Source: Candidatus Heimdallarchaeota archaeon
GTDB lineage: Archaea > Asgardarchaeota > Heimdallarchaeia > JABLTI01
Direction: 5' to 3'
Length of the DNA stretch: 64,000 nucleotides
Assembly (NCBI GenBank): GCA_019058275.1
Contig: JAHLVW010000103.1
Location: forward strand, 32,001-96,000
The notes under the pieces were generated by a model. The model made no database searches, was not told the origin of the DNA, and saw only the letters and a program-made list of their open reading frames with translations. Below, piece by piece: positions 2,586 through 6,230 of this stretch. Position 1 is the first letter of the stretch. Each line of letters starts with the position of its first letter. The position numbers and the translations under genes are program-made.

Positions 2586-3602
2586 ATGACAAAAGACTAT
2601 TGGATATTATTAGCTTCATTAAAGGATACTGGTTTTGATATTCACATTTCCGAGCAATTACCATTTGATAATATCCTTCCGCAAATCAATTATCTTGGTA
2701 TATTCGCTAGTAATTCAATTAATGATGTTACAGGACCTGTTACATTTTATAATCTGCTTGAATATCAATGTCTAATGTTCTCATTTGAAATAAAGGATAT
2801 GGCAGTAACTGATCCTCGAATGGTAAAGAACAATTACCTTGTGACTGCTTTTGTTCTCATCTTGTTTAAAAATACCCAAAAACACCAGCAGTATTTTGCT
2901 AACATGCGTTTACTGTTATTAGATAAAGTTACTCTCTGGAGACAGAATTACTCTAGGATAAGGGAAATTCAAGAGTCTGATTTCGAGAAATTGACTAATA
3001 TTCTTACAAATTTAGAAAGCATAGATAGCAAATTAAATACAGAGACTCCAAGTATTGAATATAACAAACTATTCTTTATTGATCAGCTTAATAACTTTAG
3101 TTCAATTATAGATAAACACTACTCGGTACTTTTTGTAATCAATTCAGAAAAATATTTTGAAGAAATAAGTAATATCTTCATTAATTTTGGTCAACATATT
3201 TTCCCAAAGATGGAAAAAAACTTTGATTCATTTAATGTTACAACAATAGATAATCTAGAAGTTAAATTGGTTGCTACAAATAGTCTGAAGAAAATGAAAA
3301 ATAAATCTGTAATGCTCTTATTAGATACTGATACTGAATTTGAATCATATATTCAAAATATTGATAAGCTTGAACTAGAAGATAGGGAAAATTGTTTAGT
3401 CTATCTTTATTCAGAAAAAGGTGAAAAGAATCTTGTTAAAAAATACTTTAACACTATCTATAAAATCAAAACTTGCAATGTGGGTTTTGTAGAAGAGGTA
3501 GATGATTCTTCATGGCTACAACAACTTATTCAATTCATGTATCGAGTTGTGTTCAAATTTAGATACTATGACAAAGAACAGGCTTTAAAATTTAACATGT
3601 AA
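2586..3602 (+). CDS. Putative longin/uDENN-like N-domain fused to an alpha/beta C-domain (possible pseudo-GTPase)
   Basis: N-half GP..Y..FSFEIKD....DPR....TAFVLILF strand-loop-strand pattern; C-half alternates hydrophobic strands and helices like a G-domain but lacks GxxxxGK. Fold is inferred. Confidence 0.5.
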   Translation: MTKDYWILLASLKDTGFDIHISEQLPFDNILPQINYLGIFASNSINDVTGPVTFYNLLEYQCLMFSFEIKDMAVTDPRMVKNNYLVTAFVLILFKNTQKHQQYFANMRLLLLDKVTLWRQNYSRIREIQESDFEKLTNILTNLESIDSKLNTETPSIEYNKLFFIDQLNNFSSIIDKHYSVLFVINSEKYFEEISNIFINFGQHIFPKMEKNFDSFNVTTIDNLEVKLVATNSLKKMKNKSVMLLLDTDTEFESYIQNIDKLELEDRENCLVYLYSEKGEKNLVKKYFNTIYKIKTCNVGFVEEVDDSSWLQQLIQFMYRVVFKFRYYDKEQALKFNM

Positions 3603-3763
3603 AACTACCCAATCAATACAATGATGCTCAAATTTTACTTATTTTCTTAAGATTTTTTTTGTCGAATGTTTTTTGCCTCAATAATACTTTTAAAAAACCC
3701 ACGTTTCGTATATTATATTATCTTATCATTAAAAGTGATTTATCAAACAAGAGAGGATTCCGT

Positions 3764-4315
3764 TTGAAAACTGAAGCTATATGTATAACTACAATGGGAA
3801 AGGAACATGTTGAACTAGTCGATGTCTTTCCAAAAGAATGTTTGACAAACGAACAAAAAGAGTTCATTCAAAAAAACAGCCTTCCCATTGGTGCAAATAA
3901 AGGTGATTACTTCACCATTGAAATGGATAATCATGGCAATGTGCTCTTTAGCTATGTTTTTGTAATTCCATCATTGGAAGAAAATGAACGAAATATTATC
4001 GCTTCTCTTACATCTATTGTAAGAGAGCATGAAAAGATTCTAGTGGACAAAATTCACGAAGAAAGTGAAATTCACAAAGAATTTGTTCGAAAGAGCTTTT
4101 CGTACATAATTGATGAATTACAAAAATTAGGCATCTTATCTTTACCAACAATTATCGAAATAATCCCAGCCATTCTAGACGGATTAATGAGTGGTAATTT
4201 CAAAATTGAGGTAAATGGTAGAAGAGTAATTGAATTCAGTTTTGGCATCAGAAAATCAGCAGTTGAAGATGATGATGAAATTACCAGAAAAACCATGATG
4301 AGTGAACTATATTAA
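3764..4315 (+). CDS. Putative uDENN/longin-like protein
   Basis: ORF track 3659-4315; start moved to TTG 3764 after GAGAGG. Motifs VFP..SLPIG..GD..SYVFVI..ERNIIASL resemble uDENN/longin. Confidence 0.6.
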   Translation: MKTEAICITTMGKEHVELVDVFPKECLTNEQKEFIQKNSLPIGANKGDYFTIEMDNHGNVLFSYVFVIPSLEENERNIIASLTSIVREHEKILVDKIHEESEIHKEFVRKSFSYIIDELQKLGILSLPTIIEIIPAILDGLMSGNFKIEVNGRRVIEFSFGIRKSAVEDDDEITRKTMMSELY

Positions 4316-4328
4316 AGGAGCTTAAGAA

Positions 4329-4862
4329 GTGTCATTCCTGTTAAAACTATTTATGAATAGAACAAAAAATGTAGCAGTAACTTTTTGTGGGCTTGATAAG
4401 GCTGGTAAAACAACTATGGTTGATTATTTGAAAACTGGTCAATTCAATGAGAACATACATGCTACATTGGGCATGAATAAGGAAATAATTGATGTTCCAG
4501 GATTAACTTTTAACGTAATGGATCTTGGAGGTCAAGAAGATTTCAGATGTATTTGGCATGAAGCCAATGAAAAAACAGATGTTTTAATCTATATTGTTGA
4601 TGCATCTGATTTTACTCGCTTTACTGAAACGAAAGAGATCTTTCATCAAATTGTAAGTACACAAATTAAAGATGATGTCGTCATAATGGTTCTCCTAAAT
4701 AAAGCAGACATTACTCCAAGAATTAATGGAGGTGCAGATTTCATCACAGCATTTGGTTTGAATAAGTTATCCAATACTTGGACACTATTTACAACATCAT
4801 CACGAACAGGTCAAGGTATCTATGAAACTTTTACTTGGCTTAGTAATCGATTTAAAGGATAA
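4329..4862 (+). CDS. Arf-family small GTPase
   Basis: G1 GLDKAGKTT, G2 Thr (ATLG), G3 DLGGQ..FR.IW, IYIVDASD, G4 NKAD, G5 SSRTGQGI, N-terminal amphipathic MSFLLKLF; AAGGAG RBS. Confidence 0.95.
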   Translation: MSFLLKLFMNRTKNVAVTFCGLDKAGKTTMVDYLKTGQFNENIHATLGMNKEIIDVPGLTFNVMDLGGQEDFRCIWHEANEKTDVLIYIVDASDFTRFTETKEIFHQIVSTQIKDDVVIMVLLNKADITPRINGGADFITAFGLNKLSNTWTLFTTSSRTGQGIYETFTWLSNRFKG

Positions 4863-4880
4863 AACTCAGGAGAAAGAAAA

Positions 4881-5861
4881 ATGCTTTCTGCAGTACAAAT
4901 ACTGTTCTTGATGATCAGTAGTATTACTTTTGTTTCTTTGTCATTCTTAGTTATTATGTTGTTTAGAAAATATCTAGAGAAGAAAACAATAGGAACTCTG
5001 CTGCTTTTATTTGCGTATTTTGACAGTTTAATGGCTGATGTTTTAATTGATATTAGTGTTTGGTTACAAATTTTTATACAGACTGAAACTGTTGAATTTG
5101 CTTCAACTATCTTAATGCATTTATCAACAATCTTTCTAATCCATGTCATTGCATTTATGTACTTCTTTGGTAATCGTGTCGCACTTCTAAAAGACAGTGA
5201 TATTACTAAAGTAATCTATACAACATTATTCCTTGGTCTTTGGGGAGCTTATGCAGCACTTGGTTTACAAGAGATTATACAAAAAGTTGCTTCACCAGTC
5301 TTTTATATTAAATTTCCAGTAGAAGGAACAAGTGTTTTCTTCATATTCCCAACAATTAATAGATGGCTATCAATAATTCCCATTTTATTTATGCTTATTG
5401 GAGTATTAACTTATTTCAGAATTTTCTTTAGGTGTCTAAGTCTTGCACGAAAAGCAAGAAATAGAACTGAACAAAGGATAAACACCTACAATTATTTATC
5501 TGTTATATTTTACATGCTTACTGGTGTAACTTTAGCACTTTATTATGTTTCAACAAATATCTATATAATGACTACTGTTTTTGCTATGCGTGGTATTTCA
5601 ATTGTTTTAGCATCTATCTATGGTTATCTAGGATGGATTCAACCCGAATTTATCAAAAAAGTTCTTAGAGACAAAACTCACATTGCACTTTATTTCGAAG
5701 GAAAAGTTGAGAGACCAAAAACTCCTCCAACCTTTTTCTCTACTCCTGAATCCAGAGAAAAGGAACAATCAAATCCACAGCATTTTGATAAAATTGTACC
5801 ACCAACAGAAACACCTACAGCAACATCTTTTCAACCACAAGAAGTTATGCCAGAAGAATAA
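4881..5861 (+). CDS. Seven-transmembrane membrane protein with Pro/Ser/Thr-rich C-tail (possibly extends to 5912)
   Basis: About seven hydrophobic segments, ending GYLGWIQPEFIKK; CAGGAG RBS, 18 bp after the GTPase stop. Confidence 0.75.
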   Translation: MLSAVQILFLMISSITFVSLSFLVIMLFRKYLEKKTIGTLLLLFAYFDSLMADVLIDISVWLQIFIQTETVEFASTILMHLSTIFLIHVIAFMYFFGNRVALLKDSDITKVIYTTLFLGLWGAYAALGLQEIIQKVASPVFYIKFPVEGTSVFFIFPTINRWLSIIPILFMLIGVLTYFRIFFRCLSLARKARNRTEQRINTYNYLSVIFYMLTGVTLALYYVSTNIYIMTTVFAMRGISIVLASIYGYLGWIQPEFIKKVLRDKTHIALYFEGKVERPKTPPTFFSTPESREKEQSNPQHFDKIVPPTETPTATSFQPQEVMPEE

Positions 5862-6230
5862 GTTGTACCACCAATACCAGAAAAAGATGATGACGATTGG
5901 AGTTTTGAATAATATAAAACTCCTCGCCTTTTTATTTTAGAATATTTTCATTTAATATCTTATGACAGAGATGTATTTTTTTCCCTTTCAAATTTGATAG
6001 TCTTACGTATCTTGGCACGTTGAGATCTTTGAATAACCAAGTAAACGTACAAAACTAATGGCCATAAGAAAAAAAGTCTAAATGTAAAATCTAATGAACT
6101 AAATAGTTTTTTAACATTCAATCTTCTAACCTCAATAATATCTTCGAAAAAAATTATTTAAGAATCACTATAGAGGCAAATTCATAGTAAATAATGATTT
6201 TCATAAAAAAACAAAGAAATAAACTCATTG

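Follow-up and report, generated by a model that had tools for sequence, protein, structure and literature searches.

A longin, Arf-family GTPase and seven-helix protein cassette in Heimdallarchaeota: a probable membrane-attached GTPase switch

A 64,000-nucleotide stretch of a Candidatus Heimdallarchaeota contig (JAHLVW010000103.1, positions 32,001 to 96,000, assembly GCA_019058275.1), referred to here as the window, carries four open reading frames (ORFs) on the plus strand, g1 to g4, within positions 2586–5861. Judged from gene order in relatives, the last three form a conserved, block-duplicated operon of which g1 is not a constant member. They encode an NPRL2/NPRL3-like longin (g2), an Arf-family GTPase (g3) and a seven-transmembrane (7TM) protein (g4). 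The three are probably one operon for a membrane-attached small-GTPase switch, in which the longin would be a GTPase-activating protein (GAP) docked on the 7TM protein. The host genome is 4.1 Mb in size and 93% complete, and its close relatives have been deposited mostly as Candidatus Heimdallarchaeota metagenome-assembled genomes (MAGs). The features of the locus are as follows.

2586–3602, plus strand: g1, 338 aa, candidate folliculin/SMCR8-type longin-DENN protein and local neighbour of the cassette
3603–3763: g1–g2 spacer, 161 bp, with T runs and an A/T-rich stretch
3764–4315, plus strand: g2, 183 aa, NPRL2/NPRL3-like longin (by predicted fold) with a TTG start at 3764 and a flexible C-terminal tail
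4329–4862, plus strand: g3, 177 aa, Arf-family GTPase with a GTG start
4881–5861, plus strand: g4, 326 aa, predicted seven-helix membrane protein, N-terminus out and C-terminus in, with a helix 8 and a disordered tail
5899–5933, plus strand: hairpin followed by a T run, 3' of g4, a candidate end of the transcription unit from a pattern scan

In the proposed mechanism, g4 would be a sensor or anchor in the cytoplasmic membrane, with an outer face that varies between paralogues and a conserved cytoplasmic face. On this inner face g2 would dock, probably helped by its acidic-aromatic C-terminal tail, and would regulate g3, most likely as a GAP that places Arg76 as an arginine finger against the catalytic Gln69 of g3. 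The GTPase would cycle on and off the membrane and recruit effectors, and how much g3 is GTP-bound locally would depend on the state of g4, with g1 as a separately transcribed, folliculin-like neighbour. The GAP activity, the docking through the tail, sensing by g4 and every downstream step are inferred.

Gene order carries the first part of this argument. The g4 protein was searched in 40 relatives, and the 10 kb around each copy were then searched for all four proteins. This yielded 31 copies of g4 in 11 genomes, with up to seven per genome. The longin gene lies directly upstream of g4 in all 30 loci other than the window, and g3 stands between them in the same order in 21 of these (genus and family); the other nine are longin-7TM pairs without a GTPase. 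The triad also occurs in a second family of the class (f2) and in named Candidatus Heimdallarchaeota MAGs. The genes flanking the cassettes vary, and include those for an ABC transporter, a peptidase, a nitroreductase, DUF362 and TPR proteins. An earlier note on this DNA, made from the sequence alone, had singled out a linkage of all four genes and proposed that its recurrence be checked in other Asgard genomes. The g2-g3-g4 part recurs as described, whereas g1 was found next to none of about 40 other cassettes examined. A T-rich spacer also parts g1 from g2, and the g1 family adjoins a different Arf-like GTPase in congeners, so the four-part linkage was not upheld.

The g4 tree places the nine pairs without a GTPase in three clades nested among the triads, which indicates that the GTPase was lost repeatedly while the longin-7TM pair was kept. 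This pair is the constant core of the cassette. The pairwise identity matrices of g2, g3 and g4 correlate with r values of 0.75–0.88, figures that are inflated by relatedness, and this correlation is consistent with block duplication and divergence of whole cassettes. A literature search found no publication that links Asgard archaea, a GTPase and a 7TM protein. As side observations, a same-strand TPR-repeat protein of 280–306 aa lies upstream of the GTPase-less pairs of one clade (loci L030, L035, L038 and L011) and may be an extra component of that subtype, and one triad (L111, G006:C11; 3106–3615 of L021) has an additional, divergent 170-aa Ras/Arf-like GTPase directly upstream of the longin.

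The layout of the window copy is in keeping with co-transcription of g2, g3 and g4. The common orientation of the four genes stated in the earlier note was correct, as were the gaps of 13 bp (g2–g3) and 18 bp (g3–g4) and the separate ribosome-binding sites, since both gaps hold a purine-rich motif ahead of the start codon, AAGGAG in the case of the GTG start of g3. A GAGAGGA motif lies 8 nt 5' of the g2 start, and the TTG start itself is backed by the N-termini of homologues (MKPxSLCL versus MKTEAICI). The g1–g2 spacer, in which one strain variant has a 5-bp deletion at 3709, is probably where the g1 transcript ends and where the triad has its promoter region. Hairpins with T runs occur at three sites in the region against 1.4 expected, so that the one at 5899–5933 is weak evidence for a terminator. 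A scan for sigma-70 promoters, a bacterial consensus that is not relevant for an archaeon, gave fewer matches than shuffled sequences. The whole stretch from 2000 to 6400 is unbroken on contigs from two other samples, and the gene arrangement is therefore not an assembly artefact; a look for RNA evidence of co-transcription found no RNA data set listed as containing the stretch, only DNA contigs from sediment metagenomes. A hidden in-frame extension past the g4 stop was considered and rejected, because homologues stop at the same place, after a common V-E-V-S-E-like motif. A long-tailed subset of the 7TM family ends, for example, in Q-I-V-E-V-S-E; g4 of the window ends in Q-P-Q-E-V-M-P-E-E, with its stop at 5859.

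The identity of g2 rests on its predicted fold. No Pfam family matched the protein or, with one exception given below, its relatives, and its profile retrieved only chance-level matches among PDB sequences. The family is rare, with 127 relatives among 1.84 billion representatives in a profile search. A model built from a 28-sequence alignment (predicted local distance difference test, pLDDT, 84.7) has the order strand-strand-helix-strand-strand-strand-helix-helix plus a hairpin. In Foldseek the best match was NPRL2 (E 2.5e-6), and the other top matches were NPRL3, yeast Npr2/3, a Lokiarchaeal roadblock-longin, Lst4, DENND1 and FLCN/FNIP. Structural alignment of model residues 1–172 with VIA-align ranked NPRL3 first (Z 15.0, root-mean-square deviation 3.2, 155 residues aligned), with NPRL2 (Z 14.3–12.3) and Npr2 (12.8) behind it; DENND1 and DENND10 reached Z 9–10, SMCR8/C9orf72 9.1–9.4 and generic longins 7–9. 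The models thus support the placing of g2 as a longin of the GAP type, similar to NPRL2/NPRL3. The earlier note had counted two longin-like genes at this locus; for g2 the claim stands on the fold, whereas for g1 only language-model features and one motif resemblance were found.

A single residue makes the GAP role attractive. Arg76 lies in the loop between strands 4 and 5 of the g2 model and is invariant in all 28 family members; it is also kept in 53 of 59 distant relatives, together with two prolines. Human NPRL2, as given in PDB sequences, reads G20-P21...P28 and K-K-Y-S-R78-N-A-L-L; the corresponding elements of g2 are G15 (H in the window copy)...P23 and E-N-E-R76-N-I-I-A, and the spacing from P23 to R76 is similar to that from P28 to R78. 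The equivalence of Arg76 with NPRL2 Arg78 is one of motif, spacing and colinear structural alignment (model 1–172 to chain 5–167) and not of residue-level superposition, and on this footing Arg76 is a candidate arginine finger. One of the distant relatives carries a Folliculin_C domain (E 8e-12). The family ends in D-[DE]-L-W and most of the distant relatives in G-x-[FLI]-[FL], while the window copy ends in S-E-L-Y.

Residues 5–174 of the GTPase g3 match PF00025 Arf with 129.7 bits (cut-off 22.3; E 1e-37). Its motifs are GLDKAGKT, T46, DLGGQ with the catalytic Gln69, NKAD and TSS, so that G1–G5 are intact, and in this respect the earlier description of an Arf GTPase with all G motifs was accurate. 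DxGGQ and all G motifs are kept in every cassette GTPase copy (20–21 compared), and G26, K27, T28, T46, D65, G68, Q69, K125 and D127 are invariant in 20. Most eukaryotic Arfs have an N-terminal amphipathic helix that is myristoylated at Gly2. The protein g3 has Ser2 and no Gly2; its N-terminus, MSFLLKLF, is hydrophobic and conserved, with M1, S2 and F8 invariant. The amphipathic helix that had been claimed for this segment was not confirmed: the helical hydrophobic moment is 0.28, a value equalled or exceeded by 1205 of 2000 shuffles, and the N-terminus is conserved and hydrophobic, not demonstrably amphipathic.

The sequence of g4 has seven hydrophobic segments, and a confident model (pLDDT 86.4) places seven helices at 4–34, 37–65, 69–99, 107–133, 162–191, 195–223 and 227–253, plus a helix 8 at 256–272 and a beta-hairpin in the TM4–TM5 loop, that is, extracellular loop 2 (ECL2). 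Lys and Arg are enriched in the predicted inner loops. The 7-TM protein of the earlier note was thereby borne out, with a predicted architecture similar to that of G-protein-coupled receptors (GPCRs). No Pfam family matched g4 and none was common to its 30 relatives; one member matched 7TM_GPCR_Srsx at E 0.56. All of the top 50 Foldseek matches were GPCRs, with weak scores (E about 1e-3, TM-score 0.35–0.48). An exhaustive VIA comparison with 48,161 chains gave top Z values of 15.5–13.5, nearly all for GPCRs of classes A, B2, C, D and F; one microbial rhodopsin scored 14.4 and helical models typically reach about 14. The Atlas fold search returned HisKA_7TM and GGDEF/EAL 7TM sensors (TM-score 0.59–0.63) and a 587-member Promethearchaeota cluster (0.60/0.80).

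Conservation in g4 is confined to one side of the membrane to a large extent. Columns conserved at 80% or more number 17 of 63 in the cytoplasmic parts, 7 of 160 in the transmembrane helices and 0 of 49 in the extracellular parts. The conserved motifs are KKxTxGT in intracellular loop 1, Y.F..R..L.D after TM3, with an invariant Arg at the cytoplasmic end of this helix, and YLGW..P.W.K/R in helix 8. A family whose inner partner is conserved and whose outer specificity varies would be expected to show this distribution.

Two other roles for g4 have to be weighed at this point. One is a GPCR-like cycle, in which ligand-bound g4 would be a direct exchange factor for g3, in the way that a GPCR is for G-alpha, with g2 as the matching GAP. 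The topology of g4 is indeed GPCR-like in its helix 8, its ECL2 hairpin and the invariant Arg of TM3; g3 is placed between the other two and its divergence follows that of g4 (r 0.88), and the cassette has no other candidate exchange factor. This cycle is nevertheless unlikely, as cassettes that kept g2 and g4 have lost the GTPase on two or three occasions at the least, the partner of distant 7TM relatives is a roadblock-like protein and no GTPase accompanies them, and g4 has no sequence kinship to any GPCR family. In a fuller form of this idea, the cassette would be a self-contained circuit with g4 as a ligand-gated exchange factor for g3, tail-docked g2 as the built-in GAP and paralogues sensing different ligands. 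Such a circuit is regarded as distinctly unlikely; if true, archaea would have a forerunner of, or a parallel to, both GPCR/G-protein signalling and the 7TM-controlled longin GAPs at eukaryotic lysosomes.

The other role is that of a transporter or cargo, whose sorting, clustering or vesicle budding the Arf GTPase and longin would control, without signalling. Arf-family GTPases drive budding, and Arf/Sar switches control coats in this way; membrane binding of Asgard Arfs in heterologous cells is reported (PMC11914678); and Lokiactin co-precipitates an ARF GTPase (PMC13716822). By predicted fold, however, g4 is nearest to receptor or sensor 7TM proteins (GPCRs, HisKA_7TM and GGDEF/EAL) and not transporters, and its conserved residues lie in cytoplasmic loops and helix 8 instead of a pore or substrate site. 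A cargo role is accordingly rated improbable, and g4 is taken further here as a sensor or anchor for the longin.

Docking of g2 on g4 was approached by structure prediction. The predicted complex gave interface scores (ipSAE) of 0.60, 0.54 and 0.60, against 0.00 for three controls, a result classed as weak support. The mark set for this score is reached by 58 of 80 solved complexes and by 2 of 110 mismatched pairs; scores of 0.60 or less comprise only seven of the 80 solved complexes and both of the passing mismatches. Contact agreement between runs was at least 21%, and the pLDDT of the partner was at least 69.

The wider family points to the tail of the longin as a possible docking element. 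With the g4 profile, weaker relatives of about 250 aa were found in 85 of 400 genomes across the phylum, and these share the helix-8 motif YLG[WY]..P.W[FL][KR]. Ahead of the distant 7TM relatives, in the class and beyond, stands a roadblock-like protein of about 150 aa, whose family is not that of g2 and has sub-threshold Pfam matches to Roadblock/LC7, Sybindin and Fuz longin. In all 11 cases adjacent to a 7TM gene, the roadblock-like protein ends in [LFV]-W. A relationship of this family to the g2 family was tried and rejected (hhalign probability 0.5%). Two partner families that are unrelated in sequence thus share a 7TM neighbour and an acidic-Trp tail at the C-terminus, and this tail is a candidate docking peptide.

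Remote metagenome contigs carry similar parts in a different order. There an Arf GTPase with this roadblock-like domain fused at its C-terminus (Arf::roadblock), an Arg-bearing longin and a membrane protein with at least seven TM helices are translationally coupled. The longin has 165 aa and a G-S-F-F-type end, and the start of the membrane-protein gene overlaps its stop. The loci are as follows.

L137:98-2146: Arf::roadblock, Arg-longin and membrane protein of at least seven TM helices
L139:188-1701: the same arrangement
L133: the same arrangement

The recurrence of the four parts in permuted architectures argues for a common function and not for chance adjacency. Among the short (about 250-aa) 7TM relatives, tandem duplicates are frequent (L076, L103, L107 and L108). 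Elsewhere in the window, positions 8869–14412 encode a predicted surface protein of 1847 aa that has a single TM segment and, on the cytoplasmic side, a tail of about 300 aa, in which the pattern L-F-G-G-A-L-T-G-I is reminiscent of the roadblock-like family; the hidden Markov model of that family gave no match to the cytoplasmic part at E <0.1, and Pfam gave nothing relevant.

Several observations weigh against the reading of the cassette as a GAP-controlled switch. A GP motif just before strand 2 marks the GAP longins of eukaryotes (PMC12290439), and it is not kept in g2: in the family G15 (at least 90%) precedes L or V, so that only the Gly is shared, and in the window copy the two residues are H15-V16. 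The cassette encodes one longin, whereas eukaryotic longin GAPs pair two longin proteins in a heterodimer. The GAP role is also one choice among options, as exchange factors and scaffolds occur among longins too. The Z of about 15 between g4 and GPCRs can be reached by unrelated helical bundles. The predicted g4-g2 complex was only a weak pass and gives mild support for the pair, given the adjacency in 30 of 30 loci. Also, the window copy itself is the most divergent member of its family.

The first of these points leads to a specific alternative, in which g2 would not be a GAP but an exchange factor, a holder akin to a guanine nucleotide dissociation inhibitor (GDI) or a scaffold for g3, comparable to Mon1-Ccz1, TRAPP, DENN or Ragulator-type proteins, with g4 as an anchor only. 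Apart from the missing GP motif, it is favoured by the presence of DENND1 and DENND10 among the structural matches, and by the fact that most longin and roadblock proteins that act on GTPases are exchange factors or platforms (PMC12290439). NPRL3 and NPRL2 are, however, the closest folds by a clear margin, and the Arg at the position of NPRL2 Arg78 is invariant in the family and largely kept beyond it. On balance a role other than GAP is given a minor chance, and the GAP reading is retained for g2.

The state of the window copy calls for similar caution. It has a long branch in the g4 tree, with g4 only about 30% identical to its nearest relatives. Its g2 has a 12-residue insertion, Y in place of W at the end, and lacks the near-invariant G15. 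Among strain variants (runs X3 and X5), 12 substitutions were found in the four genes, 10 non-synonymous against two synonymous, including two Leu-to-Pro changes in g1; the density of single-nucleotide polymorphisms in the four genes is about the same as in the flanks. Selection on the window copy may therefore be relaxed, or it may be diversifying. Besides this copy the host genome has just one cassette, a longin-7TM pair (G000:C55:152432-153214, L035/L056) whose 7TM gene has two in-frame TAA stops. The longin of this broken cassette is intact and is preceded by a TPR protein, and the whole looks like a decayed copy. By these signs, the window copy might itself be a drifting or decaying paralogue with little function left, within a family that as a whole is functional. 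This is thought rather unlikely, because all ORFs are intact in three strain variants, the sole indel being intergenic, all the invariant residues of g2, g3 and g4 are kept, and the window holds the only intact triad of a 93%-complete genome.

A triad of this kind can be compared with several known systems. GATOR1 (NPRL2-NPRL3-DEPDC5) acts on RagA/B, and the GPCR-like lysosomal protein LYCHOS/GPR155 binds GATOR1 (PMC11525196; bioRxiv 10.1101/2024.11.21.624772). As in that pairing, a longin with an Arg at the place of NPRL2 Arg78 occurs together with a GPCR-like multi-helix membrane protein and a small GTPase. In contrast to GATOR1, however, the GTPase is of the Arf family and not a Rag, and the longin is one stand-alone protein of 183 aa instead of part of a three-subunit complex. 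There is also no DEPDC5 and no C-terminal NPRL2 domain, and the GP motif is reduced to G-L/V. The 7TM protein differs from LYCHOS in that it has no transporter or DEP domain, and the cassette genes are linked in an operon.

The C9orf72-SMCR8-WDR41 complex is a longin-DENN ARF GAP (PMC8213707). It resembles the cassette in linking an Arf-family GTPase to an Arg-bearing longin, here by operon structure and with a GAP role that is predicted. Unlike its subunits, g2 has neither a DENN domain nor the strict GP motif, its Z to them is lower (9.1–9.4) than to NPRL2/3, and no second longin is part of the unit. A 2025 study of longin GAPs asked whether ArfR or Rag GTPases are the partners of GP-motif, Arg-bearing longins in Asgard archaea (PMC12290439).

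Among prokaryotes, the conservons or G protein systems of actinobacteria combine in one operon a small Ras-superfamily GTPase with its roadblock-type regulator and a membrane sensor, and have been likened to G-protein-coupled signalling (PMC13343842, PMC13621833). The cassette is likewise a prokaryotic operon of a membrane protein, a GTPase regulator and a small GTPase. The conservons are bacterial, however, with a histidine-kinase-like sensor, an MglB-type roadblock protein, a Ras/MglA-like GTPase and a fourth core protein, CvnC, whereas the cassette lacks both a kinase-like protein and a fourth conserved gene. It is an analogue and not a member of that group.

In Asgard archaea, an operon has been described that joins a LAMTOR1-like roadblock protein to a Rab-like GTPase and a DENN protein, NPRL2-like longins and FLCN-like proteins have been catalogued, and an ESCRT operon has been listed (Liu et al., bioRxiv 10.1101/2020.10.19.343400). 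That LAMTOR1-Rab-DENN operon is comparable as an Asgard cluster linking a small GTPase to a longin, roadblock or DENN regulator; it differs in that it includes no membrane protein and its GTPase is Rab-like. A longin-Arf-7TM cluster is not mentioned in the text of Liu et al. Like the Asgard ArfR/AArf proteins (bioRxiv 10.1101/2024.02.28.582541; PMC11914678), g3 is an Asgard member of the Arf family with eukaryote-like switch motifs and no Gly2; terms for neighbours, operons or transmembrane partners are absent from the texts of those two papers. The seven-helix bundle of g4 is shared with HisKA_7TM and 7TM-GGDEF/EAL sensors and with GPCRs at the fold scores given above. In contrast to all of these, g4 has no sequence match and is marked by its helix-8 motif. 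Unlike the fused prokaryotic sensors it also has no output domain, and output would pass through a non-covalent longin or roadblock partner.

In the cultured Loki archaeon, GTPases and their regulators generally do not share operons, so that they are hard to match (PMC10933270). The cassette names concrete candidates for the regulator and the membrane partner of Asgard Arf GTPases. It is a specific and repeatedly conserved pairing that joins an NPRL2-like longin and an Arf-family GTPase to a receptor-like 7TM protein, and the small size of each of the three would allow expression and assays. If the 7TM protein holds the longin and the longin is an Arf GAP, then the membrane recruitment of longin GAPs, as in GATOR1-LYCHOS and the C9orf72 complex, predates eukaryotes, and the cassette would offer a testable model for the way in which Asgard archaea couple outside signals to membrane or cytoskeletal dynamics.

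The neighbouring gene g1 is a separate case. No Pfam family matched any of nine members of its family, and the family profile found nothing meaningful in the PDB. One close homologue was present in 5.8e9 proteins, and the distant homologues are about 350 aa long. By language-model features, which serve as leads only, the nearest Atlas clusters to the whole protein are Heimdall proteins (PF11704 Folliculin in 23% of members), then C9orf72, FLCN and SMCR8 (0.92–0.80), and those nearest to residues 150–338 are Folliculin_C, SMCR8_C and DENND11 (0.88–0.79). The invariant residues of the family are G16, G50-P51, F67, D76 and R78, the last two in nine of nine members. The segment F-E-I-K-D...R78 resembles F-F-I-K-D-S-L-A-R164 of FLCN (starting at F157), with the Arg seven instead of four residues after the Asp; the resemblance is one of sequence only. 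These features and this motif make g1 a candidate longin-DENN protein of the folliculin/SMCR8 type, which can probably be counted among the FLCN-like proteins that Liu et al. (bioRxiv 10.1101/2020.10.19.343400) noted for Heimdall archaea. The idea that its C-terminal half is a dead GTPase was dropped (hhalign 0.1% against the cassette GTPases; the Atlas features favour DENN-type families), as was that of g1 and g2 as related longins (hhalign probability 0.5%).

A last alternative would nonetheless make g1 part of the machine, as a second longin that forms with g2 a heterodimeric GAP for g3, comparable to FLCN-FNIP, NPRL2-NPRL3 or SMCR8-C9orf72. This four-part module is held to be very unlikely. 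It is contradicted by the absence of g1 from the other cassettes, by the 161-bp spacer, by the lack of profile similarity between g1 and g2, and by the two Leu-to-Pro changes among the strain variants. What speaks for it is the position of g1 directly upstream on the same strand, the invariant D-x-R (R78) after the FLCN-like F.IKD motif, and a linkage of the g1 family to a GTPase elsewhere. In three congeners, a different Arf-like GTPase of 191–194 aa (25–28% identical to g3) is followed within about 10–20 bp by a g1-family member of 349–362 aa, and the host-genome orthologue of this GTPase is a truncated remnant (C55:110844-111092). These gene pairs, a second GTPase-longin pairing distinct from the triad, are located as follows.

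L080:877-2514: Arf-like GTPase and g1-family protein
L081:876-2514: Arf-like GTPase and g1-family protein
L082:882-2517: Arf-like GTPase and g1-family protein

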